From a virus, in the IMG/VR virus record IMGVR_UViG_3300032105_000006: a DNA stretch of 37,377 bases. The stretch is one strand, 5' to 3'. The position numbers and the translations under genes were made by a program. Positions 1 through 37,377 of this stretch are shown piece after piece. Numbering within the stretch: the stretch's first letter is position 1; each line of letters opens with the position of its first letter. The notes under the pieces were generated by a model. It ran no database searches. It saw only the letters and a list, made by a program, of their open reading frames with translations, and had not been told where the DNA came from.

Positions 1-113
1 TAGCCGTTGCCGTAGCCGTCGCCGTATCCGTAGCCGTAGCCGTAGCCGTAGCCGTTGCCGTAGCCGTCGCCGTATCCGTAGCCGTAGCCGTAGCCGTAGC
101 CGTAGCCGTCGCC
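1..113. repeat. Tandem hexanucleotide array (GCCGTA with GCCGTT/GCCGTC/TCCGTA variants). Nt 1-55 are identical to nt 37323-37377.
   Basis: Direct reading shows a 6-nt period over about 19 units. The 55-nt match between window start and end is exact. Confidence 0.95.
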
Positions 114-4140: not shown

Positions 4141-4424
4141 ACTTTCTCCTTCTCAAGATCATGTAGCTTCTTCATTGCTTCTATGGATTCTTCGGGGGTT
4201 TCGCCGGGGCGGATTGGGCGCAATACGTTATCGCCAATACCATTTATTTGTGAGCCACAACCACATTCACAATAAACTTCTGGACCCTCATAAGTCCAAT
4301 ATGGATGCCCATTTAGGGTAGTGCCTCCAATGGATTTAAGCTTGAAAAGCTTATCAACAAGGCCCGTTTCTTTCATTTCTTGCGAGTTGATAACAATCGC
4401 CATATCACCCGGTTTGCAATTCAT
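4137..4424 (-). CDS. Hypothetical protein (95 aa) with a CECGCG motif
   Basis: ORF track. Confidence 0.75.
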   Translation of the reverse strand: MNCKPGDMAIVINSQEMKETGLVDKLFKLKSIGGTTLNGHPYWTYEGPEVYCECGCGSQINGIGDNVLRPIRPGETPEESIEAMKKLHDLEKEKV

Positions 4425-4427
4425 ATC

Positions 4428-4628
4428 TCACTCCTTTACAAAAAACATCCTAGCCCTACCCTCAGCGCTTAAATGAGGTGTAGCCATTTCCAATGCTCTC
4501 ATCAGAATAGCCTGCACCAGGGCTTGCTCATCTTCTGGAGAGTCTCGTTCTTTTGCGATGATGTGGGCCATCTGCTTGGCGCTTTCTAGGATGCGCTCTG
4601 ATAATAGCCGCTCTTGGGCCTCTGTCAT
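4428..4628 (-). CDS. Hypothetical protein (66 aa)
   Basis: ORF track. Confidence 0.7.
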   Translation of the reverse strand: MTEAQERLLSERILESAKQMAHIIAKERDSPEDEQALVQAILMRALEMATPHLSAEGRARMFFVKE

Positions 4629-7452: not shown

Positions 7453-7952
7453 CCACCCAACAAGATGAGCGTGCTGAGTTGACCAAGGAAGAAAAGGCGC
7501 TGGGCGCATTCCTATCTGCCATGCATGACTGCAAACTCGACGGCGGAAAGATGCGCGAGGCCATGCTCAAGGTGCTTGGGCTGGAAGCTGATGCCAAGGG
7601 CGGGGAGGCGGTGGCTGAGTGGCACCTTGACTCCGAAGCAGCACAGTTTCTCGCAGAGCTAATAACAGCAGACGAGGACGGGCCGACTGAAATTTCTCTG
7701 CGCGTTGGTCAAATCAAGGACGACGATGGCACCGTTAAGCATGGGCTGCTCGTTTATGAAACGGAGTACCCAGAAGAAGGCGCAAGCCTGCTGGTCGAGT
7801 GCCCGCCGCTCTACAACCGCCCCCAGCAATCAGCACAGGTGCCGCTGACGCAGGAGCAAATACGAGAAATGGCATGGCCTGCTTTTTATCGCGATGACCA
7901 ACGGTTTATTCCATTCGCCCGCGCCATTGAGAAAGCACACGGCATAGGGTAA
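7449..7952 (+). CDS. Hypothetical protein (167 aa)
   Basis: Start moved to ATG 7449 (GGGGGAGAG RBS, ATGA coupling). The track ORF starts at 7320. The TAA stop lies inside the conserved box. Confidence 0.75.
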   Translation: MTTQQDERAELTKEEKALGAFLSAMHDCKLDGGKMREAMLKVLGLEADAKGGEAVAEWHLDSEAAQFLAELITADEDGPTEISLRVGQIKDDDGTVKHGLLVYETEYPEEGASLLVECPPLYNRPQQSAQVPLTQEQIREMAWPAFYRDDQRFIPFARAIEKAHGIG

Positions 7953-7986
7953 ACACCTATTGCATGAGTGTTTTTAGTCTGTAGTA
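7944..7986 (+). promoter_or_regulatory. Conserved box TAGGGTAAACACCTA (7944-7958) plus TTGCAT -35-like and TAGTAT -10-like (7981-7986)
   Basis: Box centre to -10 is 30 bp. The predicted start near 7993 precedes the AGGAG RBS at 7999-8003. Confidence 0.5.
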
Positions 7987-8007
7987 TTGGTATTTTTAGG
8001 AGATGTT

Positions 8008-8145
8008 GTGGATATTCTTGCAAACATCATGCTGCTTTTTCTTGCATTGGTAGCTATCTTCGGCTATCTACACTTTGCCTTGAAAAGCAATGACCCGCTA
8101 GAAAAGGCTAATCGAGAGTTTCGTAATAGAGAAAGGGTGAAGTGA
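8008..8145 (+). CDS. Small membrane protein (45 aa, GTG start)
   Basis: Own translation VDILANIMLLFLALVAIFGYLHFAL... AGGAG lies 5 nt upstream. Confidence 0.4.
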   Translation: MDILANIMLLFLALVAIFGYLHFALKSNDPLEKANREFRNRERVK

Positions 8146-8303
8146 TGGATGAGCAATGGTACGAGACTGTAGCTAGACAAGATTTCAAGCAAAGAGCATT
8201 GCAAGGAAAAAGAAACAGCGATGCTTATGATCTTGGTTTTTATCTTGGGATGTGTCTACCATTTTGGTTTGCCATGCTAATCATCCGGTTTATTTATCGC
8301 TAA
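8145..8303 (+). CDS. Small protein (52 aa) with a C-terminal hydrophobic segment
   Basis: Own translation MDEQWYETVARQD... TGATG coupling to the previous ORF. Confidence 0.5.
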   Translation: MDEQWYETVARQDFKQRALQGKRNSDAYDLGFYLGMCLPFWFAMLIIRFIYR

Positions 8304-8312
8304 AGGAAAAAC

Positions 8313-8444
8313 ATGGATCAAGCTTACTATGAGCAAGTGGCTAGACAAGAGGAATGGGAAGAAGAACAAGAGGCAATGCGCTGGAAGATGGTGCAAGAGC
8401 GAGTAGAGAAAGATAGGCAGTATCTTGTGAGGAATAAGAAATGA
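8313..8444 (+). CDS. Small acidic protein (43 aa), N-terminus paralogous to 8145..8303
   Basis: Own translation MDQAYYEQVARQEE... AGGAAA RBS. ATGA overlap with the Sak gene. Confidence 0.5.
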   Translation: MDQAYYEQVARQEEWEEEQEAMRWKMVQERVEKDRQYLVRNKK

Positions 8445-9539: not shown

Positions 9540-9748
9540 TGAAATTAACAGGCGACCGAAATCAGTGCCAAGGCTGCAAGGAGTATTTCAACTCTACATT
9601 CGCCTTTGACAAACATCGAACTGGTGAATACGGAAAAGATCGTAGATGCCTAAGCACAAGCGAAATGCTAGAGAAAGGCATGGACAAAAACAACGCTGGA
9701 TTCTGGATTAGCGCAAAAATGCCTGATTCTGCAATAAACCAAGGGTAA
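9539..9748 (+). CDS. Small zinc-finger protein (69 aa)
   Basis: CQGC...H...C pattern. TGATG coupling. The TAA stop lies inside the conserved box. Confidence 0.7.
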   Translation: MKLTGDRNQCQGCKEYFNSTFAFDKHRTGEYGKDRRCLSTSEMLEKGMDKNNAGFWISAKMPDSAINQG

Positions 9749-9783
9749 ACACCTATTCCAATCCCATCCCAAATAACTACCAT
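9741..9783 (+). promoter_or_regulatory. Conserved box AAGGGTAAACACCTA (9741-9755) plus -10-like TACCAT (9778-9783)
   Basis: Box centre to -10 is 30 bp. The predicted start coincides with ATG 9790, so the mRNA may be leaderless. Confidence 0.45.
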
Positions 9784-12150: not shown

Positions 12151-12184
12151 TCAGTAACTCCAGCAAATTGTGTATAATGGAGAT

Positions 12185-12802
12185 ATGAATAAAGAGCTAT
12201 TGCAATCACTTCTTGATTATGACCCGTTAACTGGCATTTTCAAATGGAAAGTCAGCAAGCCTCCACGAGGGAAAGCTGGGGAAATTGCTGGATACAACAA
12301 TGGCTCAGGATATATCAAGATTTCTATTGCTGGCAAAAGGCATTACGCTCACAGGCTTGCTTTCATTTTTATGGGATTTGATGAGCCTGAGATTGTTGAC
12401 CACATAAACGGCGTTAGACATGACAATCGGTTTGAAAACCTTAGGTCAGTATCTTCTCAAGTTCAAAACCTAAACAACACAAATTACGGCAAAGGAATTA
12501 GAAAACGATACGGCAAATGGTATGCAAGAATTGGAGGCTCCCACATTGGAGTTTTTGATAAAGAGGATGAAGCCATAAATGCATACAACAAGAGAAAACT
12601 AGAGCTTGCAGAATTGCCAGAAATACAAATTGAAAAAGTAGATTCTCCGAATACAAAAAGATGGAGCTATAACAAACTTCTACTCAATGGCAAATCAATT
12701 TCTGAGTGGTCAAGAAACTCTGGAATTCCGCAGCAAACCTTGTATTACAGAGTTCACAAAATGGGCTTGGATATCCAGTCTGCTATAAAACTAGGGATAT
12801 GA
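12185..12802 (+). CDS. HNH homing endonuclease with AP2-like and C-terminal HTH domains
   Basis: HRLAFIFMG...VDHINGVRHDNRFENLR and GKWYARIGGSHIGVFDKEDEAINAY. GGAGAT RBS before ATG 12185 (track start GTG 12170). Opposite strand to the lysis genes. Confidence 0.85.
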   Translation: MNKELLQSLLDYDPLTGIFKWKVSKPPRGKAGEIAGYNNGSGYIKISIAGKRHYAHRLAFIFMGFDEPEIVDHINGVRHDNRFENLRSVSSQVQNLNNTNYGKGIRKRYGKWYARIGGSHIGVFDKEDEAINAYNKRKLELAELPEIQIEKVDSPNTKRWSYNKLLLNGKSISEWSRNSGIPQQTLYYRVHKMGLDIQSAIKLGI

Positions 12803-16263: not shown

Positions 16264-16305
16264 GGTTTATCTTTCACTTGATAAATCAAGTTAGTGAGTC
16301 CTTAC

Positions 16306-18497: not shown

Positions 18498-20149
18498 TAT
18501 TGCTCCGATAGAGCGGAAAAGTTAGCGACCACTGACTCTGATAGAACTTTCTGAGCAGCAATCCGGAAAGGGTCTTTTGCGGGTCGTTGGAGAAGTTTTG
18601 CAAACTCGTCAGGATCAGCAAGACGACGCGCCAGTTCTTGCGCCACCGGAGTATTTACATCCCCAAGCACGTTCTTGATCACGTAGTTGATGATCGTTGC
18701 AGGGCGAGACAAAAGATTAGGGGCTTGTGGAAGCTTCCCCGCCACGGAGTCTCTTAGAGACGTAGCCCGCACAATGTTCGCAATCCGCTTGGCTTCTTCC
18801 TGCCGACTAAGCTGGGCCTCGATATTCTTCATGCCTTTGGAATAGGTATTGAGATACTCTTTCCAAGAACCGCCTGCGCCTGCTTTTTCAATTGCGTCGT
18901 CAATGTACCTTTGCACGCTTTTCTCCAAACCGGCGGCCAGTTTCTTGTCCCAATTGGCAGTTTCCTTGGAGAATTGGGCAATCGTATTCCCAACTTCCTT
19001 ACGAACTGTGTAAAGATCATTGGCGTCAATCGTCCCATTTTGATTGCGAGGTAAAGCGCCGATCTTTTGCTGGATCGCAATCAGGGCTTTATTCACCACT
19101 TCGGAAGCACGTTTACCTGGAGTGTTGAGAATCTTGTCAATCTCGTAGGAAATGACGTTAGGGGTCACGCCTTGGACATTGGCGCGGGCAATCGCTGTTT
19201 CTCGAAGAGGCGCAGTAAGTTCACCAATGCTTTTCTCGTAAGCCTTGATAGCGGCCTCTTGACGACGAGCGACACTGGGAAGTAGGTCTTCCATTCCAGA
19301 AGCGCCGGTCAGTTGCTCTTGGAGTTTTACGACAGCACCGCCAGTTTGACGAGGTTGCCCAAGGTTTTGCTCGGCAATTGCTTCTGCAACAGTTGGACGA
19401 GCGCCGGGCACAAACTCGGAACGATTCCTGATCGCAGCAAGAATCTGCTGTTTTTGATCGCCTACGATTCTTTCGGCTGCATCGCCTGCAACTTTACTGA
19501 TTGCACGCTTATTTCCAAGAGAAGCGGCCAAAAGAGTAGCGGCATCCTTTGATTTCTCAGCAACCATCCTACCGGCAGCAAACGAAGCTTGAGGTGCAAT
19601 ACCTCCGACAAGACCGCTTACAAGTTGTCCCGTCTCTCCCATGCCGCTTTCACGCGCAAATCCTTGGCCCGCGCCTGCACCGGCAGAAGAAGTAATGCCA
19701 ACACTTGAGCCAAGACGCTCTGCAACTGCACGAGTCACAGGAGAAGCGGCGACCCGGGAAACTCCAAGAGCAACACCAGCCGCCCCGCCAGCACCAGCCA
19801 CCGTGCGAGAAATATCGCCAACAATGCGTTCCTTAGATGTTTCTGGCTGAGGAAGCCCAGCAACATTCGCCAAAGACTCACCAGATCCAGCACGAATCTG
19901 CATGTCATCTGGCAATACCATGTTCAAACCAGCACGGAAAGGGCTGGAAAGAACATCCAAGACACCGCCAACACCTTCAAGGCCGTATCTAGCAGTCAAT
20001 CCAAGTTGACGGCCAAACTCTTGACCAGTTGATCTTTGTTGAGCAGGCTGAATCCCCATCATCTTTTGGACGGTTGCTTGAATCACTTCGTTTGAAGTGC
20101 CTTCTGGAAATTCCAGAACAGTACCATCGGGCAGTTCTGCTTCAATCAT
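18497..20149 (-). CDS. Internal virion/ejection protein candidate (550 aa)
   Basis: N-terminal ELPDGTVLEFPEGTS motif seen in podophage internal proteins. Gly/Ala-rich segments. Confidence 0.6.
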   Translation of the reverse strand: MIEAELPDGTVLEFPEGTSNEVIQATVQKMMGIQPAQQRSTGQEFGRQLGLTARYGLEGVGGVLDVLSSPFRAGLNMVLPDDMQIRAGSGESLANVAGLPQPETSKERIVGDISRTVAGAGGAAGVALGVSRVAASPVTRAVAERLGSSVGITSSAGAGAGQGFARESGMGETGQLVSGLVGGIAPQASFAAGRMVAEKSKDAATLLAASLGNKRAISKVAGDAAERIVGDQKQQILAAIRNRSEFVPGARPTVAEAIAEQNLGQPRQTGGAVVKLQEQLTGASGMEDLLPSVARRQEAAIKAYEKSIGELTAPLRETAIARANVQGVTPNVISYEIDKILNTPGKRASEVVNKALIAIQQKIGALPRNQNGTIDANDLYTVRKEVGNTIAQFSKETANWDKKLAAGLEKSVQRYIDDAIEKAGAGGSWKEYLNTYSKGMKNIEAQLSRQEEAKRIANIVRATSLRDSVAGKLPQAPNLLSRPATIINYVIKNVLGDVNTPVAQELARRLADPDEFAKLLQRPAKDPFRIAAQKVLSESVVANFSALSEQ

Positions 20150-22812: not shown

Positions 22813-23119
22813 GAATCAATCTCAATGAATCTTTTGCAAGTTCCTTTGGGGCTACATCATCAGCCCATAAACAAAGCCACACAATGTCAGTAAGTGCTAA
22901 CACCGAGTGTACTGTATTCTTTGGGATTGTGATGAGGTTGTAGCCAGAATACTTGGTTTTTTTGCCATCCACTGTGACTAAAGCGTCACCACTGACAAGC
23001 ACACTCATGTGCGAGTGTTCGTGTTTGTGAGACTCCAGATAATGACCGGCTGGAGCCTTTGTTTCTACAGCGAAAACGTTTCCAGACTCATCATCGCCGC
23101 CATGAAAATTGATTTCCAT
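22793..23119 (-). CDS. Monocupin metal-binding protein (108 aa)
   Basis: HKHEHSH...G and P..TVH cupin motifs. Start set at ATG 23119, 1 nt after the upstream stop. The track ORF starts at 23224. Confidence 0.65.
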   Translation of the reverse strand: MEINFHGGDDESGNVFAVETKAPAGHYLESHKHEHSHMSVLVSGDALVTVDGKKTKYSGYNLITIPKNTVHSVLALTDIVWLCLWADDVAPKELAKDSLRLIHEDQTT

Positions 23120-23562: not shown

Positions 23563-23880
23563 TTACCAAGCTGGTCGGCCAACCACAAACTTTACAGTCG
23601 TGGATGCGAGGTCAACAGCACCAGCAGTGTTATTCAGCAGCGTCAGAGTAACGGTATTTGCAGCCGTCACAGCGCCACCAATAACAGCGTCAACAGTGTC
23701 AACGCCAACGCTGATGAAACCAACAGCGTCACCAAGCGCAACGCCAGGAACAGTCACATCTGCGGAAGCAAACGTACCAGAACCAGTAGCAGCATTGCCA
23801 AAATCAACAGTTTCCTTGACCGTCCAAAGTTCTTTGAACAGACCTTGGAACTGTTGCGTACCTTGATTAACAGTAGCCAT
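23563..23880 (-). CDS. Small beta-rich capsid decoration/cement-type protein (105 aa)
   Basis: Position after the capsid gene. Ala/Val/Thr/Gly-rich beta-type composition. Confidence 0.55.
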   Translation of the reverse strand: MATVNQGTQQFQGLFKELWTVKETVDFGNAATGSGTFASADVTVPGVALGDAVGFISVGVDTVDAVIGGAVTAANTVTLTLLNNTAGAVDLASTTVKFVVGRPAW

Positions 23881-24454
23881 ATTTGTCCTTTCGATGTTTA
23901 ACTAAATAATCAATCGCTTTTGCCAAAAAATCAACATTTTCGTAAAAATGTCCAAGTCCTTTATTACATTGGGAGCAAAGTAGTTTTCTTATACTACCAG
24001 ACTTGTGGCAATGATCAACAACCAATCCGGCTCTGCCTTCTGGCGGTTTTTCTTGCTCACAAATTGCACAGCATCCTTTTTGTTCACTGTACATCCTTTT
24101 GTAATCATCAAGTGTTATTCCATAAGTTGCACGAAGCATTGTGCTCCTATGCTGTTCTGGATCACGCCTTAATTTTCTGCGCTCATTATCAAGTCTAGCA
24201 AGCTCTGGATTAGATTGTCTTTTTTCTCTACGCTTTGCATTAATTGACTCAGAATTTTTCCTAGTCCATTCTCGCATATATGCGTTATAAGACTCTCTAT
24301 CTTTCGCCCTACTTTTCTCTTTAACTAAACGCTGCCTTTCCTTTTCCTTTTCTCGGTTTTTTTCAACATAGTTTTTTCTATATGTTTTTAACCGTTCTGC
24401 GTACTCTGGATCAGACTCTTTTCTTTCTTTGACTTGCTGATAAGTAAGTGGCAT
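23867..24454 (-). CDS. Endonuclease VII-type HNH homing endonuclease
   Basis: CCAIC...VVDHCHKSGSIRKLLCSQCNKGLGHF motif. AT-rich. Inserted between the capsid and decoration genes. Confidence 0.85.
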   Translation of the reverse strand: MPLTYQQVKERKESDPEYAERLKTYRKNYVEKNREKEKERQRLVKEKSRAKDRESYNAYMREWTRKNSESINAKRREKRQSNPELARLDNERRKLRRDPEQHRSTMLRATYGITLDDYKRMYSEQKGCCAICEQEKPPEGRAGLVVDHCHKSGSIRKLLCSQCNKGLGHFYENVDFLAKAIDYLVKHRKDKYGYC

Positions 24455-26354: not shown

Positions 26355-26493
26355 TCCTGCCCAAATGGGTTGTCAGGTTAAACAACCTCTGCCTTTCGGT
26401 TACCAGAGGACTAGTTGAAATGTACTCGCAATTTTCAAAGTTAGCAAGTGGTCACTAACTTAGATGCAAGCACTCACTTCAATTTTTGCGAAA

Positions 26494-26736
26494 TTAATAC
26501 TCTTCGGCCCAGCTTTTTTTGCCTTTGACCTTGCGATTCTGCTCACGGATGTTTGCCCAGCGGTCGTATGCGGTTGGGAAATCACCAGTAGTTCCATCCA
26601 GTTTGATGCTTGGCATAGAGACTTGTCGGTTCGCGTGACCGCCGCATTCACACTCAACTGAATGTATGTTGGTACTTACTAACTTTTCAAACATTTCGCC
26701 ACAGTCGTGACAGAAAAAGTCATAGAGTCTCTTCAT
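26494..26736 (-). CDS. Zinc-ribbon protein (FmdB-like CxxC...CxCG)
   Basis: FCHDCGEMFE...VECECGG. Confidence 0.7.
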   Translation of the reverse strand: MKRLYDFFCHDCGEMFEKLVSTNIHSVECECGGHANRQVSMPSIKLDGTTGDFPTAYDRWANIREQNRKVKGKKSWAEEY

Positions 26737-26965
26737 TCTTTAATTCCTCATAAGCCTTTTCGGACATTTCCTTGAGTCCAAGGAACCATTTCATGATCGA
26801 AACCTCACCTTTTCTGAAGAACATCTTGTCTGCTGAGTCGATATTATCCAGATTGTTAGTGGCCGCTAACATTTGCTCAACATCTTCAACCAAGTCTTTC
26901 CAGCCTTGTGTTGCCATCATTGAGAAACGTTCTTCGTAATAGCGTTCAAGTTCTTTGTTCATCAT
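26720..26965 (-). CDS. Hypothetical protein (81 aa)
   Basis: ORF track. Confidence 0.7.
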   Translation of the reverse strand: MMNKELERYYEERFSMMATQGWKDLVEDVEQMLAATNNLDNIDSADKMFFRKGEVSIMKWFLGLKEMSEKAYEELKNEETL

Positions 26966-29176: not shown

Positions 29177-29211
29177 ATGACCCCCAAAGTAAGTAATTGC
29201 TTACATTCTAC

Positions 29212-30477
29212 TCAGTACCCAGATATTGTGTCCAGAGGCTGGTAGTCGTATTCCTCATCCTCGATGTAGGTTGTAACAGCCATCTGGTCAATCATGGAGA
29301 GGGCGTCAATCAAATCATCGTGGACGCTGGAAGTCGGAAACATGAGGTACTCGTCCTTGAACTCATCCCAGTTTTCTTCTTCATTCAGGATGATCCGACC
29401 GTGTTCAAACCTACCCTGAAGCGCCCAGATAATCCGGTCGTTCTTTTTCTGATTTCCGTGGGTAAGTGGTTGGATGTGGGCGAACTGGTTGTTTTTCCTC
29501 ATCAGTTCACTGAGGTAAGGCATGACAGCGTTAAAAAGAGAGCCTTTTTCAATCCCTACCTTCATGGGTTTGAATTCACGGATGTTTTTAAGGATGCGGA
29601 TGGCGGTTTCACGAATATCCCAGCGTCCATGTTCAATTTTCCTGACAAACCACTTCGCGTCATCTTGTTGTTTGACGACACAAATCGCTGATTGGTCGAG
29701 TCGTTTTTTGCTTTTAGAGGCTGATTGGCCTACGGATTCAAAACCTGCAAGGTCAACCGCGATGTAATAAGAGCCCGGTTTTGGTTCTTTCCCAAACTTC
29801 AACCATTGTTCTTTGAAAACATCCGTCCCAGCGTTATCAAAGTCAGCCAAGTATTCCTGACGGAAAGCAAAGGTACTCAGAGTTCTCTTTGCAGCCTCGA
29901 TTTCAGCGGGGTCGATGAGTTCGTTGTCTGCTGTATAGAAAAGCCATGACTTCCATTCATCGTCTTTTTCATGAACTCCAATCTGATAAAGGTCGTAGAA
30001 GTGGTTTCTTCCCTTTGGAGTCCCAATAAACAAAGCCCGGCCCTTATGGCGAGACAAAGCAGCACGGATAACCTGCTCCCACACAATCGGCTTCATGTCT
30101 GCGTATTCGTCCATGACGACATACCACAGGTCCATGCCTCGAAGGGTATCCGGTCTATCAGCACCACGGACGTAAATAACACACCCGTTGACCAGAGTTA
30201 TCTCCATGTTATTCACATGGGATGAGGCAATGATCTCATGCCCCAAGTCCATCAACAAGTCCCAGATAATGACTCTTGCCTGACCTTGAGTAGGAGCGAC
30301 GTACATCACTCCAGAACCTTTAGGGCATTTCAGGGCTTCAATGAGAAGGGAAACAGCAGCCAGACGAGACTTGCCTGAACGTCTTCCAGCAACTACTACC
30401 TTGAATCGAGACGGATCAGGAAGAACCTTCCTCTGCCACTTGAGAAGCTGGAACGATAAATTAGGCATTATTTGCAA
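29212..30477 (-). CDS. terL: Terminase large subunit
   Basis: Walker A VVAGRRSGKS, Walker B-like LWYVVMDE, C-terminal nuclease-type domain. Confidence 0.9.
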   Translation of the reverse strand: MQIMPNLSFQLLKWQRKVLPDPSRFKVVVAGRRSGKSRLAAVSLLIEALKCPKGSGVMYVAPTQGQARVIIWDLLMDLGHEIIASSHVNNMEITLVNGCVIYVRGADRPDTLRGMDLWYVVMDEYADMKPIVWEQVIRAALSRHKGRALFIGTPKGRNHFYDLYQIGVHEKDDEWKSWLFYTADNELIDPAEIEAAKRTLSTFAFRQEYLADFDNAGTDVFKEQWLKFGKEPKPGSYYIAVDLAGFESVGQSASKSKKRLDQSAICVVKQQDDAKWFVRKIEHGRWDIRETAIRILKNIREFKPMKVGIEKGSLFNAVMPYLSELMRKNNQFAHIQPLTHGNQKKNDRIIWALQGRFEHGRIILNEEENWDEFKDEYLMFPTSSVHDDLIDALSMIDQMAVTTYIEDEEYDYQPLDTISGY

Positions 30478-31067
30478 TACTCAAAAGAATAGCCTTTTGT
30501 TGAAGCAATTTTTTTCTTGCAACATTTGACTATATGGCTCATGTCTAAACAAAGCTCTTTTGCTGCAAAAGTAATTGATTCGTATCTAATGCCATTAGTT
30601 GTACAAAATACAGGAATCCAAGCTTTTGGAGATTGAGTTCCTTTTTTTGCTTTACTTAAATTTTCTTTGTGTTTTTTACTTTTGGGAACGCCTATTAAAG
30701 CTTCCCGTAAATTCTTTAAAGCAAGATCGCTTGGTTTTTTGCCTTTGTGAGCAATACTGAGTCTTTTTTTACTTTCTTCAGTGTGTCTTGGGCCAGAATT
30801 ACTTTTCCCACCAGAACAAATATTGGCCAATTTTTGGCCTAAATCTCTAAAAACAGAGATTAAAAATTCCTCATGAGCTAACGCATCTTGCTCAGAATCA
30901 AAACAGCAAAGTATCTCACTTTTAAAACCACCCGCTTTATTGACAATATTGTGCCAATAATTATTCCTGTTTTGTCTTTTCAAGTGCCTGTTACTTTGTC
31001 CCTTACCAATGTAAAAAAGACAATTTGTATCTGCTCTGTAATGAGCATACGTGTAAAAGTTAGCCAT
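30468..31067 (-). CDS. GIY-YIG homing endonuclease with NUMOD3-like repeats
   Basis: FYTYAH...LFYIGKG...R...N, HTEESKKRLSIAHKGKKPS and KHKENLSKAKKG. Strongly AT-rich. Confidence 0.85.
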   Translation of the reverse strand: MANFYTYAHYRADTNCLFYIGKGQSNRHLKRQNRNNYWHNIVNKAGGFKSEILCCFDSEQDALAHEEFLISVFRDLGQKLANICSGGKSNSGPRHTEESKKRLSIAHKGKKPSDLALKNLREALIGVPKSKKHKENLSKAKKGTQSPKAWIPVFCTTNGIRYESITFAAKELCLDMSHIVKCCKKKIASTKGYSFEYCK

Positions 31068-31310
31068 TAAAGAAATATCATTCCAACCACAAGTCCAATA
31101 ACAATGCCGGCAACAAGATAGTATGGTCGAATATATAGATAAATGTTAGTCATTGCTAACTTCCCAAATCTCCACTCCATCATCTGCTTTCTTTCCAGAA
31201 TCAGAGAACTTCAAGTTAAGATTTGCCATCAGGTCCCTGAAGCAGCCACAGGACAAAACTTCCCATTTTCATGAAAAATCTCAAGCTCCGTAGAAGGATA
31301 AAGTTCGAGA

Positions 31311-31598
31311 CTATTCATCAACTACTCCTATAAGCTCTTTTAAAGAAGGCTCATCCCATAGCACTAAAAGATCATCAGTAAAAAAATACAGTTTTTCAGC
31401 AACAGCATGAGCGTATGTCATTTTTGCAATATTGCAGTTTATTTCTTTTATTTTTGATGTTGCGTATTCCAAAATCAACGCCCTGTCTTCTAAAGAAGAA
31501 TTGCTCATTGAATTAATAACCAACAAAGCAGCATCTCTTTTATGAGAATCGCCGCATTTATGATTATTAAGAAAAATCTTTGTTTCAGGATTCATCAA
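31311..31598 (-). CDS. Hypothetical protein (95 aa), AT-rich
   Basis: ORF track. Overlaps the TerS 3' end by 14 nt. Confidence 0.6.
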   Translation of the reverse strand: MMNPETKIFLNNHKCGDSHKRDAALLVINSMSNSSLEDRALILEYATSKIKEINCNIAKMTYAHAVAEKLYFFTDDLLVLWDEPSLKELIGVVDE

Positions 31599-32043
31599 TC
31601 TCTCCGGTATCGTTGTCTATTGTAATCGGAGATTCACCAATCCCAGTGATGTTAATCTGCACAGCAGTCCTGTTCCCACCCTTTTTAGGTTCAAACAGGC
31701 TGACAGGAAGAATCCGATCCGCACACATCTTCAACGCCGCCATCTGCCCAGGATGGTCATCATTCATAGCAATCTCAAACGTCTTACGAATCACCTTGGT
31801 AGCACGAGGATCACTCAAGAGATATTCCTTGAAGTCCTCCATCCTCTGCTTCTTACCCTTCGTCGTAGCTACAGGCTCCCTAGCCTTCACCACAGGGTTC
31901 ATATTCCTCATCTTCCAAGCCTCCTTATTCAGCTTGGACTTCTCTTTCCTCGTCAGCTCCTTCACAGGCCTGGAACTCAAATCAATCAACTCATCCAGCT
32001 CTTCATCTTCAAGGTCCATTCGGATTTTCCTTTTCGAGTCCAA
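31585..32043 (-). CDS. Putative terminase small subunit
   Basis: First gene of the late block. Charged N-terminus and AALKMCADRILP segment. Assignment rests mainly on position. Confidence 0.5.
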   Translation of the reverse strand: MDSKRKIRMDLEDEELDELIDLSSRPVKELTRKEKSKLNKEAWKMRNMNPVVKAREPVATTKGKKQRMEDFKEYLLSDPRATKVIRKTFEIAMNDDHPGQMAALKMCADRILPVSLFEPKKGGNRTAVQINITGIGESPITIDNDTGEIDES

Positions 32044-32377
32044 TTTCTCTTTTCATGTGGGGAGGAGGATACAACAACTATTTCACCACAACTCACACCC
32101 TCCCCCCCCTAGTAACCACTCACTTCTGTCTATTCCAACAGTAGCAAGCACTTACATCACTCACTTCAGGTGCATGCTTAACATAATTGGCATCGTATCT
32201 GCTACATCCTAGCCTGTATGTTAGTGCTTACTATAGTGTAGGTTATCAAACTGTATGGCTTTGATAAGAACTGTGAATGTAAGGATGGCCGATGGTCCTT
32301 ATAAGGCATCTCTCAGCTATCTCTCATCCATCTGCTTCGCTTGCATCATCCTGGCGCTGATCTATCCCTATCTATAT

Positions 32378-32429
32378 CGCGTGCGCACGCGCGAGGTGAT
32401 TATACGTTAGCGCTTGCTAACATTGTCAA
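32378..32429 (-). promoter_or_regulatory. Late promoter candidate TTGACA-19 nt-TATAAT with a centred dyad GTTAGC-N4-GCTAAC, followed by the 14-bp palindrome CGCGTGCGCACGCG
   Basis: -35 at 32429-32424, -10 at 32404-32399, dyad at 32406-32421, palindrome at 32378-32391. Confidence 0.5.
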
Positions 32430-32675
32430 CCTGTTTGTTTCTGGAATGCATTCAAACCCCTAGCGCGTGGGGTGTTTTCTTGGCATGGCTTTTGTGCTTA
32501 TGCCGTGGGCTATCTTGTTTATCCCTTGCTGCCTGCTGATCTGGTGCATCGCTGTGCACAATCATTCAGGTGGCCTAGATGCTTATACGCTGGCCTGTCG
32601 CAGGGTTTATCCGATGGGTCTAGCCTAACCGCTTCGGGGACCGGGTCTCAGTCCCAGGATTTGATGCCCTCATTC

Positions 32676-32690
32676 TAGGTGTTTACCCTA
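32676..32690 (-). promoter_or_regulatory. Conserved box TAGGGTAAACACCTA without an obvious -10 at the usual spacing
   Basis: Exact core copy, minus orientation, about 260 bp upstream of the late promoter candidate. Confidence 0.4.
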
Positions 32691-32715
32691 TGCTGGTCAA
32701 ACGATCAGTGCTTTC

Positions 32716-32759
32716 TAAGGGTTTTCCCTAATGGCATTCTGTCAGTTAATGCCGATAAT
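32716..32759 (+). promoter_or_regulatory. Box variant TAAGGGTTTTCCCTAA (32716-32731) plus -10 GATAAT (32754-32759) for the 32799 operon
   Basis: Box centre to -10 is about 30.5 bp. ATGGCA -35-like with a 17-nt spacer. Confidence 0.45.
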
Positions 32760-32798
32760 TAAACCATCAGCAACCCACCACAACCTAGGAGAAATAAC

Positions 32799-33002
32799 AT
32801 GCAAGTTCAACAAAAGATAGCCTCCTTACTTGAAGTCGCATTCAGCACTCGCGGCCTTGAGTTCGGAACCCGAAATCTCATACTGTCCGATGCTGCTTGC
32901 GCCGCTGGCTTCAAGCTGTTTCATAGCGGCCACGGTCGCCACAGCGACATCATCCACTTCGAGCTGTACAGCGGCCGTCGCGCTCTGGCTTGCTTTCAGT
33001 GA
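32799..33002 (+). CDS. Hypothetical protein (67 aa). The coding strand is uncertain.
   Basis: AGGAGAAATAACATG start context. An antisense ORF 32826..33128 is also open. Confidence 0.45.
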   Translation: MQVQQKIASLLEVAFSTRGLEFGTRNLILSDAACAAGFKLFHSGHGRHSDIIHFELYSGRRALACFQ

Positions 33003-33018
33003 CTCTGGAGAAATAATC

Positions 33019-33123
33019 ATGCAACGCATCACCATCAAAGACCTGCAAGCCGTCTGCAATCGCCTGAACCGCGAAACCAGCTCGCCGCAAGCAAAGGCAG
33101 ATTCATTGTTTATCTCGAAGTAA
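33019..33123 (+). CDS. Small ORF (34 aa, MQRITIKDLQAVCNRLNRETSS...)
   Basis: GGAGAAATAATCATG start context duplicated from 32785-32801. Confidence 0.4.
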   Translation: MQRITIKDLQAVCNRLNRETSSPQAKADSLFISK

Positions 33124-33190
33124 CCCACCAGCCATTGCGCCTAGCATCCTGGGCGCAATACCGGGCGTGTTGACCCGATTGGAGTAACCT

Positions 33191-33430
33191 ATGAATCTGA
33201 CACCTGAAACCATCCAGCAGACGCGCCAATGGTACGCGGACAACGCCATGGCTTGCATCGCTGAAGTTCAAGAAGGCCGCGTCAGGGTAAACAATCCAGA
33301 ATCCTACTTCGCACGGTGCCTGCAAAATCGGGCCGACGCATTGGCTGGTAAATTCGATCATTCGTTTGCTTTCCGCCAGCGTGCCCACTATTTCCAGACC
33401 GGTGAATGCGTCCCTATTCTCCCAGCCTAA
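33191..33430 (+). CDS. Hypothetical protein (79 aa)
   Basis: ORF track. GGAG RBS. Confidence 0.65.
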   Translation: MNLTPETIQQTRQWYADNAMACIAEVQEGRVRVNNPESYFARCLQNRADALAGKFDHSFAFRQRAHYFQTGECVPILPA

Positions 33431-33446
33431 CCCAGAAAGGCCAATC

Positions 33447-33557
33447 ATGAATACCCGCAATGAATACGTCTCTCACCTTTCCCGATGTGCCTCTCTCGGC
33501 ATCGAGCCCTTGCCCTATCGGCGCTTCCTGCTGATTCTTCGGGAGATCGGGCTATGA
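33447..33557 (+). CDS. Small ORF (36 aa)
   Basis: Own translation MNTRNEYVSHLSRCASLGIEPLPYRRFLLILREIGL. ATGA overlap with the next ORF. Confidence 0.45.
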   Translation: MNTRNEYVSHLSRCASLGIEPLPYRRFLLILREIGL

Positions 33558-33655
33558 TTGAACTACTCTTCTACTTCTTCCTCGCTGGGTTCTTCGTGAC
33601 CATCCTCTGGGCCATTATCGAGGCTCTAGCGAAGGCAATCGAGGACATGCTATGA
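33554..33655 (+). CDS. Small membrane peptide (33 aa)
   Basis: Own translation MIELLFYFFLAGFFVTILWAIIEALAKAIEDML. ATGA overlaps at both ends. Confidence 0.45.
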   Translation: MIELLFYFFLAGFFVTILWAIIEALAKAIEDML

Positions 33656-33825
33656 CGCCCTTGGAGATCAAGGAAAAACGCCTACAGGCCGGTTTAACGC
33701 AGGCCCAGGCGGCCAGAGTAGTCTATGTCCACATTAGGACATGGATCAGGTGGGAAACGGGGGATATTCCAATTCCTCGGATGGCGTGGGAATTGTTCAC
33801 ACTGCGGACTGAATGCCCTATATAG
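33652..33825 (+). CDS. XRE-family HTH protein (57 aa, Cro-like)
   Basis: Own translation MTPLEIKEKRLQAGLTQAQAARVVYVHIRTWIRWETG... Confidence 0.65.
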   Translation: MTPLEIKEKRLQAGLTQAQAARVVYVHIRTWIRWETGDIPIPRMAWELFTLRTECPI

Positions 33826-33855: not shown

Positions 33856-33931
33856 TGGCCCGCCGTGCAGGAATCGAACCCACATCTAGACGGTAGAAAC
33901 GTCTTGTTCTAATCCTTTGAACTAACGGCAG
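33856..33931 (-). tRNA. tRNA-Arg (anticodon UCU), CCA encoded
   Basis: Manual cloverleaf. 7-bp acceptor, GTTC/GAAC D-stem, AGACG/CGTCT anticodon stem, loop UUUCUAC, TTCGATT T-loop. Confidence 0.85.
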
Positions 33932-33936
33932 TTATT

Positions 33937-34013
33937 TGGTGCGCTGTGGTGGACTCGAACCACCAGATAACAGGGTTTAAGCCTGCTGACTTTACCAATT
34001 TGTCTAACAGCGC
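33937..34013 (-). tRNA. Class-I (short variable arm) tRNA with anticodon UAA (nominally Leu), A73, CCA encoded
   Basis: Manual cloverleaf GCGCTGT/ACAGCGC, anticodon loop CUUAAAC, 5-nt variable loop, GGTGG-TTCGAGT-CCACC. Confidence 0.7.
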
Positions 34014-34404: not shown

Positions 34405-34436
34405 AAAAAGACCCCGTAGCCACACGGCCACGGGGT
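34405..34436 (-). terminator. Rho-independent terminator (11-nt arms, 10 paired, 4-nt loop, then CUUUUU)
   Basis: ACCCCGUGGCC-GUGU-GGCUACGGGGU on the minus strand. T-run from plus-strand A-run 34405-34409. Confidence 0.6.
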
Positions 34437-34702: not shown

Positions 34703-35062
34703 CTATCGCGTTGCATTGTCCTGGCATATGCCCTTATCAATTGATCTGTTGCTGGCTTGCTCTGTCCGCCAGATTTGAACAGAAAGATCAGCCGCCAACA
34801 TTTTGTATTTCAGCGTTTCCTCGGCCTCTACAGCAGTTCTAAGCCCTTTCAGTAGCTCGATGTACTCTGGATGCGCGTAGGCATACGCTTCCTTTGCGTT
34901 TACTGCTCCTTCGGTCTGAGCCATGAGCAGGCTTTTCTTGCTTCTGAGAAAGTTCTCCACATAGACCCTCTCAGCCTTGGCTTTGGCGAACCTGGGGGCT
35001 GTCTTAATGAGGTACTCTACAGCAGATCGCGGATTGTTGTCTTCCATTACAGCCATTTCCAT
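34703..35062 (-). CDS. Hypothetical early protein (up to 119 aa; start may be ATG 35047)
   Basis: ORF track. ATGs at 35062, 35056 and 35047; the last is TAATG-coupled to the HNH stop. Confidence 0.75.
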   Translation of the reverse strand: MEMAVMEDNNPRSAVEYLIKTAPRFAKAKAERVYVENFLRSKKSLLMAQTEGAVNAKEAYAYAHPEYIELLKGLRTAVEAEETLKYKMLAADLSVQIWRTEQASNRSIDKGICQDNATR

Positions 35063-35562
35063 TTATAGCCATTTTTTATGTTTTTTAGATGGCGAATGTT
35101 TATACCAAGAGACTGTGAAATTTCTTTTATGTCTTCTTTTGCAGCAATCCTATTTTTAGCGGTTTTTATGAGACTTTCTGAATATTTATTGTTGCCATTT
35201 CTTTCGCCGCGATTTGATGTCCCGTGATCTATCTTGTCCATCTCGTTAGAGCTTTTGCTGCCAACTCGAAGATTATCTAAACGACAATCTGTTTTTATCC
35301 CATTTTTATGGCATACATCCATACCAAATGGAATTTCACCAAAATAAGTAATTGCAACCAGCCTATGAACGTCAAACGTTTTTTGTTTATCTTTTTGATA
35401 AAGTCTTACTGTTAAATAGCCTCTTTTTGTATGCAAGTGCGGTTTTATTTGTTTGCCAACTTTTGCGCCTTTTGCTTTACCAATTCTGTAAATTAATCCA
35501 TCTTTGGTTATGCCATAAGATTCCCAATCTGGAATTGGCTTTACGTTATCAAAAAGGCTCAT
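35047..35562 (-). CDS. HNH homing endonuclease (NUMOD4-like N-terminus, HNH_3 core, C-terminal HTH)
   Basis: VHRLVAITYFGEIPFGMDVCHKNGIKTDCRLDNLRVGSKSSN. AT-rich. Confidence 0.85.
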   Translation of the reverse strand: MSLFDNVKPIPDWESYGITKDGLIYRIGKAKGAKVGKQIKPHLHTKRGYLTVRLYQKDKQKTFDVHRLVAITYFGEIPFGMDVCHKNGIKTDCRLDNLRVGSKSSNEMDKIDHGTSNRGERNGNNKYSESLIKTAKNRIAAKEDIKEISQSLGINIRHLKNIKNGYKWKWL

Positions 35563-37186: not shown

Positions 37187-37377
37187 CTAGCTTCTGCGCT
37201 TGCGTGTATTGCCGGTAACAGTGCCGTAGCCGTAGCCGTTGCCGTAGCCGTCGCCGTATCCGTAGCCGTAGCCGTAGCCGTTGCCGTAGCCGTCGCCGTA
37301 TCCGTAGCCGTCGCCGTATCCGTAGCCGTTGCCGTAGCCGTCGCCGTATCCGTAGCCGTAGCCGTAGCCGTAGCCGT
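37187..37377 (-). CDS. Gly-Tyr repeat protein, 3' part (...GYGYGTVTGNTRKRRS, stop TAG at 37189-37187)
   Basis: Own translation of the minus strand. In frame with the 5' part at 137..1 after removing the 55-nt overlap. Confidence 0.6.
   Translation of the reverse strand, partial: GYGYGYGYGYGDGYGNGYGYGDGYGYGDGYGNGYGYGYGYGDGYGNGYGYGTVTGNTRKRRS
37223..37377. repeat. Tandem hexanucleotide array, the other side of the circular junction. Nt 37323-37377 duplicate nt 1-55.
   Basis: Direct reading. Confidence 0.95.

Follow-up and report, generated by a model that had tools for sequence, protein, structure and literature searches.

The late-module locus and promoter candidate P2

We analysed a 37,377-nt stretch of viral DNA (IMG/VR record IMGVR_UViG_3300032105_000006; "the window" below means this whole stretch) with respect to P2, a minus-strand promoter candidate within 32399-32429 that precedes the genes for packaging and virion structure. 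The late block is encoded on the minus strand, its gene order including a terS-like first gene, a GIY-YIG-type endonuclease gene, terL and an SU10-type portal gene, followed by genes for scaffold, capsid protein, SU10 adaptor, tail proteins and an M15 endolysin. P2 lies 355 bp upstream of this packaging and structural block, in a 755-bp gap without open reading frames (ORFs; 32044-32798). A second promoter-like site, P1, and a structured non-coding RNA (ncRNA) cassette are located upstream of P2 in the same gap, and a divergent operon of small ORFs starts beyond it on the plus strand (Table 1).

P2 reads TTGACA, 2 nt, a 16-bp dyad, 1 nt, TATAAT, and is followed by an alternating purine/pyrimidine GC-rich tract at the predicted start. 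The first-pass annotation of this DNA had described both hexamers, the 19-bp spacer, the dyad and a 14-bp palindrome downstream of them, and we found all of these sequences and coordinates to be exact. It had also taken P2 for the sole strong promoter-like element of the gap, which is contradicted by the presence of P1. TATAAT occurs four times and TTGACA 30 times in the window, and a 12/12 hexamer pair with any spacer of 14-22 bp is expected about 0.08 times per shuffled window. The standard promoter scan applied to the window permits spacers of 16-18 bp only and for this reason alone overlooks P2.

The P2 promoter pattern gave no match in the species-genome collection, and a terL query of the same collection returned three short, differently binned contigs of metagenome-assembled genomes and nothing else. 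Among GenBank phages the gap had no DNA match, the only hits being remote portal matches.

Conservation and geometry of P2

Relatives were collected as metagenomic contigs by three routes. The first late gene served to find homologues, the upstream RNA was scanned for a motif, a route unbiased as to the promoter, and viral contigs were searched with a profile. Seven distinct lineages were counted, i.e. the window, L003, L004, L008, L009, L014 and L021; the relatives bearing P2 are uncultured phages whose first late gene is 60-84% identical to that of the window. Both hexamers, the 19-bp spacing and the dyad half-sites are common to all seven lineages while the flanks have diverged. Of the 28 invariant columns in a 126-nt alignment, 21 belong to the hexamers or to half-sites GTnAG and CTAAC; the 45 nt preceding P2 vary, as do the dyad's central bases. 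The outer dyad pair is altered on both sides (C..G to T..A) in L004, L014 and L021, which carry GTTAGT..ACTAAC instead of GTTAGC..GCTAAC. In a further contig, L001, P2 is identical and the first late gene 99% identical, with conservation starting at the -35 hexamer of P2.

In the remaining good promoters of this phage the spacer measures 17 bp (P1 at 32700 and TTGACG-17-TATAAT at 2604). Distant clades of the first-gene family show TTGACA-17-TATAAT with a spacer lacking the dyad, and one contig that shares nothing but the upstream RNA (L017, terL 26% identical) has TTGATC-16-TATAAT with half a dyad. Because of the conservation across lineages and the 17-bp spacers of the other promoters, the comparison indicates that P2 is functional and that its 19-bp spacer is a maintained deviation. 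The earlier proposal that a promoter-like element heads the late block is borne out, the 19-bp spacer and the centred dyad being selected in 7 of 7 distinct lineages. Judged from the alignment, the late promoter appears to be real and kept in relatives, with initiation presumably at P2 itself.

The same annotation had assigned P2 to the MerR type. The presence of a 19-bp spacer with a dyad inside it agrees with this proposal, and PmerT, PcopA, Pbmr and PsoxS likewise have hexamers close to the consensus, 19 bp between them and a palindromic operator in that spacer. In a survey of MerR-regulated promoters, 28 of 28 had spacers of 19-20 bp, the operator being a palindrome that fills the spacer, overlaps the -35 element and has its central kink at -24 (PMC7722741). 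The P2 dyad, however, spans -29 to -14 and is centred at -21.5, about 2.5 bp or a quarter-turn off the MerR position, and its 16-bp core does not reach the -35 hexamer, two bases lying between them. Nor is one fixed geometry seen: six more copies of the dyad occur in the window, and copies are found directly after a -10 hexamer, at +15 and in another spacer with a different offset. As the annotation had already remarked, the phage seems to lack a MerR-like protein; we found no match to MerR, MerR_1 or HTH_17 among the 67 ORFs of the window. From the sequence, membership of P2 in the MerR class is not supported.

Since perfect hexamers at 19 bp are otherwise unexplained, we nevertheless weighed a MerR-like mode of action, in which the spacer would lock the promoter and a dyad-bound dimer, either a host MerR-family regulator or an unrelated convergent phage protein, would underwind and kink it open. 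Hexamers, spacer length and spacer dyad kept in all seven lineages, the uniform spacers of the surveyed MerR promoters, and a departure from 17 bp that looks deliberate beside the phage's other promoters all fit such a switch. We regard it as unlikely in view of the missing MerR-family domain, the displaced operator centre without -35 overlap, and the occurrence of the same dyad over a start site and at other offsets; a host regulator is further disfavoured by the clade-specific, late-only distribution of the dyads described below, which points to a phage factor. Doubtful to a similar degree is a twist switch independent of MerR, in which the consensus promoter, shut by its 19-bp spacer, would be opened by an unrelated dimer at -21.5 or by superhelical stress buffered via the Z-prone GC tract and thereby gate the structural module, the other late sites of the protein being repressive or titrating.

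The GC tract is the longest alternating purine/pyrimidine run of the window (16 bp). Chance alone would give about 0.6 runs of this length per window, so that what counts is solely the conserved position. In 7 of 7 lineages an alternating run starts 3-6 nt past the -10 hexamer; it is 10-26 bp long and consists mostly of CG and CA steps, with sequences differing between lineages and predicted hairpin strengths ranging from -1.2 to -9.5 kcal/mol. An alternating tract is missing from the distant clades whose spacers are 17 bp long. The start-site palindrome pointed out by the annotation does exist in the window, but in relatives it is the alternation that is kept and not the palindrome.

This pattern would suit a supercoiling-sensing promoter. 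Here the long spacer would make P2 require negative superhelicity, supplied by divergent transcription or by phage DNA topology, the GC tract would be a buffer prone to the B-to-Z transition or to melting, and the dyad would serve another purpose. Long spacers are linked with supercoiling dependence, and P2 sits between upstream promoter P1 and the divergent operon. In the close clade the alternating tract, the dyad and the spacer of 19 bp occur together, all three being absent from the distant clades with 17-bp spacers, and within the close clade alternation is retained while sequence and hairpin strength vary widely. The case is purely inferential, and the conserved half-sites of the dyad are left unexplained by it; we consider this reading quite improbable.

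In relatives the GC tract is followed at about +17 to +25 by a -10-like element (TATAGA, TATAGT, TATAAA or GATAGT), which may be a pause element. This, together with a dyad located between -35 and -10, resembles the arrangement used by lambdoid Q and Pseudomonas AlpA, antiterminators that bind between the hexamers of a late promoter, engage the paused polymerase and confer terminator resistance; the AlpA element occupies -25 to -20 and two 21Q subsites lie near -21 and -13 (PMC6606751, PMC9371919). Antiterminator loading of this kind at P2 is highly improbable. AlpA recognises a single element and 21Q a direct repeat, in contrast to the inverted repeat of P2, and dyads inside and between late genes would not be expected. 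Pfam and PHROGs revealed no Q- or AlpA-like protein, no lysis cassette is present, and terminator prediction gave no convincing intrinsic terminator between P2 and the first late gene, nor between the ncRNA and P2.

The dyad family and its putative binding factor

In its general form, GTNAG-N6-CTNAC, the dyad is present in seven copies in the window compared with 0.64 expected, and all seven are located between 16290 and 32421, i.e. in the late module. Perfect GTTAG-N6-CTAAC is found at P2 and also at 31160-31145 and 26870-26855, the expectation for GTTAG/CTAAC dyads being 0.47 for the whole N0-14 class and about 0.03 for the N6 spacing alone. Three of the six copies outside P2 are intergenic, as opposed to 666 of the 19,253 nt (3.5%) of the late block. 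The annotation had named AAGTTAG-N10-CTAACTT, near the scaffold gene, as a related dyad. The sequence is there, at 26438-26461, but it is not kept as a dyad in L003 and L004; the copies that are truly related are spaced by N6 and located elsewhere.

Copies at homologous sites are found in relatives, directly before the start codon of the gene following terS and at the terL/portal junction, and also inside a Zn-ribbon gene and some 190 nt into the leader. Additional copies in L004 occupy the P1 spacer (offset to the -10, 3 nt), the leader and a position at about +15 relative to P2. The variant GTAAG..CTAAC is distributed 9:1 in favour of one orientation, although many of these copies are homologous. 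At the terL/portal junction a conserved -10-like hexamer (TAGAAT, TACAAT or TATAAT) is directly followed by the dyad in six lineages (the window, L003, L004, L008, L014 and L021); at this internal promoter-like site, P3, the dyad covers the predicted start site. The P3 dyad of the window is followed by a conserved lysine-rich ORF of 47 amino acids (aa; 29176-29039) that the ORF list had missed. As a separate observation, in six relatives a dyad ends 0-4 nt ahead of the start codon of the gene after terS, a position at which the window has none. The centre of these dyads is often GGAG or GAGG, and they could act at the RNA level, similar to what has been reported for Aca2.

Position 3 of the half-sites varies without compensation (T/A, A/A, G/A, T/T, A/C). 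For this reason the dyad reads as the site of a dimeric protein, and an RNA or DNA hairpin was rejected. Copies located in a spacer, over a start site and downstream of it suggest an operator-bound repressor or roadblock and not an activator working in a single geometry; with several registers in use, one of them over the start site, the factor would most likely act negatively. The restriction of the family to this clade and to the late module argues for a phage factor over a host stress sensor.

Two phage systems offer partial parallels. In mycobacteriophage L5, the gp71 operators and stoperators form one site family that is found in a promoter and also in short intergenic gaps within operons, and a layout of this type would allow the silencing of whole gene blocks. 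The L5 sites differ in being asymmetric 13-mers that are strictly oriented and bound by a monomer, while here about seven copies of a dyad are present; no gp71-like protein was recognised in the window. The late promoters of bacteriophage P1 are not known to carry a -35 element, unlike P2 with its perfect -35 hexamer. A reading of the remaining dyad copies as late promoters of the Lpa type, with the -10 at a fixed offset, was rejected because their offsets differ, and no match to an Lpa-like protein was found in the window. What bacteriophage P1 and the present phage have in common is a conserved inverted repeat as regulator site at several late units, the Lpa-type repeat being present at 11 promoters (PMC10695390).

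The only conserved DNA-binding gene linked to the P2 locus encodes a 57-aa helix-turn-helix (HTH) protein of the Aca10 family, which is always the last gene of the divergent operon. The protein matches Aca10 (PDB 7XI5) with an E value of 8.4e-10. It is 64-89% identical, with a conserved recognition helix, in L004, L009 and L014, the relatives whose contigs extend far enough upstream to hold the gene; in these contigs it is, together with a 36-aa peptide (33447-33557), the only non-late protein conserved beside P2. A homologue search with the HTH protein gave one near-identical match. A search with a 140-aa ORF returned the query only, and an exhaustive one 10 remote relatives. The small ORFs of the divergent operon had no informative Pfam or PHROG matches. 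The layout of the operon is typical of anti-CRISPR or anti-defence (acr-aca) operons, and the locus is likely to be an anti-defence island beside the packaging genes.

Aca10 acts as a dimeric repressor on a palindrome of 19-21 bp that overlaps its operon's promoter (PMC9410881). Control of neighbouring operons is predicted for Aca proteins, their motifs can sit between genes, and some of them bind RNA hairpins (PMC13551039). The present locus shares with the Aca systems a small HTH gene that ends an operon of small variable genes and a palindrome inside a strong promoter, the motif being followed after about 13-14 nt by the predicted start; additional sites are also predicted for several Aca families, in intergenic positions and at neighbouring operons. 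It differs in that the dyad is found in the structural module and in that the Aca10 site, ATACGCTCATTGAGCGTAT, is unrelated to it.

The promoter-like site of the divergent operon itself, ATGGCA-17-GATAAT (within 32716-32759), has a palindrome, TAAGGGTTTTCCCTA, adjoining its -35 hexamer and a second one, GGCATT-N9-AATGCC, in its spacer. The equivalents of these palindromes differ among close relatives, giving an immunity-like mosaic, and AGGGTAAACCCT-type palindromes were rejected as a common operator on these grounds.

The dyads could also be sites for the small terminase or another packaging protein, in the manner of cosB or pac, with the P2 copy providing feedback on the operon. Related dyads lie 20-45 nt from the G-run GGGGGGGGAGGG, which is retained throughout the wider family, also in clades that lack the HTH gene, and the N-terminal part of the terS-like protein is as clade-specific as the dyad. 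Copies 5-16 kb away in the late block do not fit well with a packaging role, and the terS-like protein has no recognisable DNA-binding fold, which makes this explanation very unlikely. The protein had no Pfam, PHROG or fold match; its AlphaFold model is all-helical and poor (predicted local distance difference test score, pLDDT, 65), and no PDB sequence or fold match was obtained. The lambda terminase small subunit gpNu1 has a MerR-like winged HTH. Since the model is poor and a PDB match is lacking, no such fold can be claimed for the terS-like protein, and we rejected this candidate.

Taking these results together, we favour, at a probability of about 0.5, the reading that P2 is a sigma-70-type late promoter whose spacer dyad is the operator of a clade-specific dimeric factor acting negatively. 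P2 would head the packaging and structural module of this novel phage, and the dimer would bind the P2 dyad and the six other late-module copies, occluding promoters or blocking elongation and in this way gating the late genes. The long spacer would keep the consensus promoter intrinsically weak or twist-sensitive. As dyad-binding factor we weakly favour the 57-aa HTH protein, which is the leading candidate; the binder could also be a host factor or a late-module protein, for instance the conserved Zn-ribbon protein (26494-26736). From the placement of the sites and the linkage of the gene we infer both the regulatory sign and which protein binds the dyad.

Several results weigh against this proposal. 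A plain repressor does not explain why perfect hexamers, a spacer of exactly 19 bp and the GC tract are kept together in 7 of 7 lineages; TTGACA-17-TATAAT in the distant clades comes with neither the long spacer nor the tract. Among the dyads of relatives, some are overlapped by ribosome-binding sites or conserved coding sequence, which possibly shaped them, and P3 has a perhaps incidental -35-like part, overlapped by the terL coding sequence. Regarding the HTH protein, autoregulation is a hallmark of Aca proteins, and no GTNAG-N6-CTNAC is found near 32716-32798, the promoter region of its own operon. The key DNA-reading residue R44 of Aca10 is not conserved in it. Co-travelling of the dyad with more distant Aca10-like genes was rejected, 650 kb of viral contigs with such genes holding two dyads.

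If P2 is the late promoter, the structural genes of an uncultured phage clade would be timed with the host RNA polymerase. Control would be exerted by a small site-specific factor on a mis-spaced consensus promoter and on sites within the operon, a layout that to our knowledge has not been described for phage late control, and which would amount to a compact portable switch of about 50 bp plus one small protein. P2 also represents a natural case bearing on the question whether spacer-length locking evolved outside the MerR family.

Table 1. Features of the P2 locus, copies of the dyad and further elements. Coordinates refer to the window unless a relative is named.
Feature	Position	Strand	Remarks
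P2 -35 hexamer TTGACA	32429-32424	minus	read from the letters; invariant in 7 lineages including the window
P2 spacer ATGTTAGCAAGCGCTAACG, 19 nt	32423-32405	minus	length 19 in 7/7 distinct lineages
P2 -10 hexamer TATAAT	32404-32399	minus	read from the letters; invariant in 7 lineages including the window
Dyad GTTAGC-AAGC-GCTAAC (6-4-6) in P2 spacer	32421-32406		putative operator, centre about -21.5
Palindrome CGCGTGCGCACGCG, 14 bp	32391-32378		just downstream of P2 -10
Alternating purine/pyrimidine GC-rich tract CGCGCGTGCGCACGCG	32378-32393		at predicted start; includes the 14-bp palindrome
Upstream promoter P1, TTGACC-17-TAGAAT, 10/12	32700-32672	minus	spacer holds TAGGGTAAACACC; -10 conserved in relatives
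Internal promoter-like site P3, TGGACA-18-TAGAAT	29205-29234	minus	terL/47-aa gene junction, just past terL stop
Structured ncRNA cassette, about 225 nt	32440-32665	minus	between P1 and P2
First late gene, terS-like by position only	31585-32022	minus	
Divergent operon, small variable ORFs, HTH gene last	32799-33825	plus	acr-aca-like layout
57-aa Aca10-family HTH (XRE-type) gene	33652-33825	plus	Pfam HTH_31/HTH_3
Dyad copy GTTAGCAATGACTAAC	31145-31160		intergenic; upstream of GIY-YIG-type gene and terL
Dyad copy GTAAGCAATTACTTAC	29189-29204		directly after -10 of P3
Dyad copy GTTAGCGGCCACTAAC	26855-26870		within 81-aa gene
Dyad copy GTTAGCACTTACTGAC, relaxed form	22886-22901		
Dyad copy GTCAGTGGTCGCTAAC	18521-18536		end 24 nt upstream of next start codon
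Dyad copy GTAAGGACTCACTAAC	16290-16305		intergenic, ahead of tail-fibre-like gene
Post-terS dyads in relatives	L003 1661, L004 6275, L008 2783, L009 6589, L014 2162, L021 1073		
Motif (T)AGGGTAAACACCTAT	34192-34178, 32690-32676, 536-522	minus	
Motif (T)AGGGTAAACACCTAT	7946-7960, 9742-9756	plus	
Homing-endonuclease-type genes	1927-2457, 12170-12802, 23867-24454, 30468-31067, 35047-35562		

The ncRNA cassette and other features of the genome

The ncRNA between P1 and P2 was folded from seven sequences with RNAalifold, giving 33 pairs, 15 of them with compensatory changes, and its G-U pairs favour the late strand. It had no Rfam match, and searching the gap at E values up to 10 yielded only noise; at gathering thresholds Rfam detected two tRNAs and nothing else. 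In L001 an unrelated sequence (4250-4580, about 330 nt) stands in place of the ncRNA, between the same P1 start and the -35 hexamer of P2; Rfam searches with this sequence at E values up to 1 also gave only noise. This replacement suggests that the ncRNA is a swappable cassette and that the conserved late module begins at the -35 hexamer of P2. The ncRNA is predicted to be driven by P1 and has two GGAUAAAC motifs after its stems. These motifs presumably resemble the ends of type I-E CRISPR repeats, which hints that the ncRNA might serve as an RNA anti-CRISPR.

An asymmetric motif, AGGGTAAACACCTAT, also in the form (T)AGGGTAAACACCTAT, occurs in five copies, each oriented with local transcription. 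The TAA in three of them serves as stop codon for the gene upstream. The P1 spacer is filled by one copy; another is located upstream of the tRNA pair and another before a 490-nt gap free of ORFs (7953-8440).

Both ends of the window (1-110 and 37225-37377) consist of a GCCGTA-type hexamer repeat and overlap by 55 nt. Given this overlap, the window probably represents a whole circular genome (about 37.3 kb) that was cut within a repeat-encoding gene. No integrase was detected in it. Upstream of the terS-like gene, the G-run GGGGGGGGAGGG (32109-32098) forms pairs with CCTCCTCCCC, located downstream of it, and a conserved ACATGAAAAG follows the G-run, the hairpin extending to about 32060. A run of the form G5-8-A-G3-5 is kept at this place even in distant clades (L027, L050, L093), and the G-run with its hairpin may be a cos or pac element. 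A further hairpin, CCTCTG-GTAACCGAAAGG-CAGAGG (26386-26409), is located in the strongly conserved 5' leader of the scaffold gene, the leader of L003 and L004 being nearly identical to that of the window; it may function as a translational operator.

Genes for tRNA-Arg(TCT) and tRNA-Leu(TAA) are found on the minus strand, with a preceding terminator-like hairpin (33856-34013, 34411-34436). This strong hairpin is found where the upstream minus-strand operon ends. Five homing-endonuclease-type genes are present in 37 kb, with HNH, HNH_3 (twice), Endonuclease VII and NUMOD/GIY-YIG-type domains, and among the relatives the terL of L009 (6606-8717) carries an intein.

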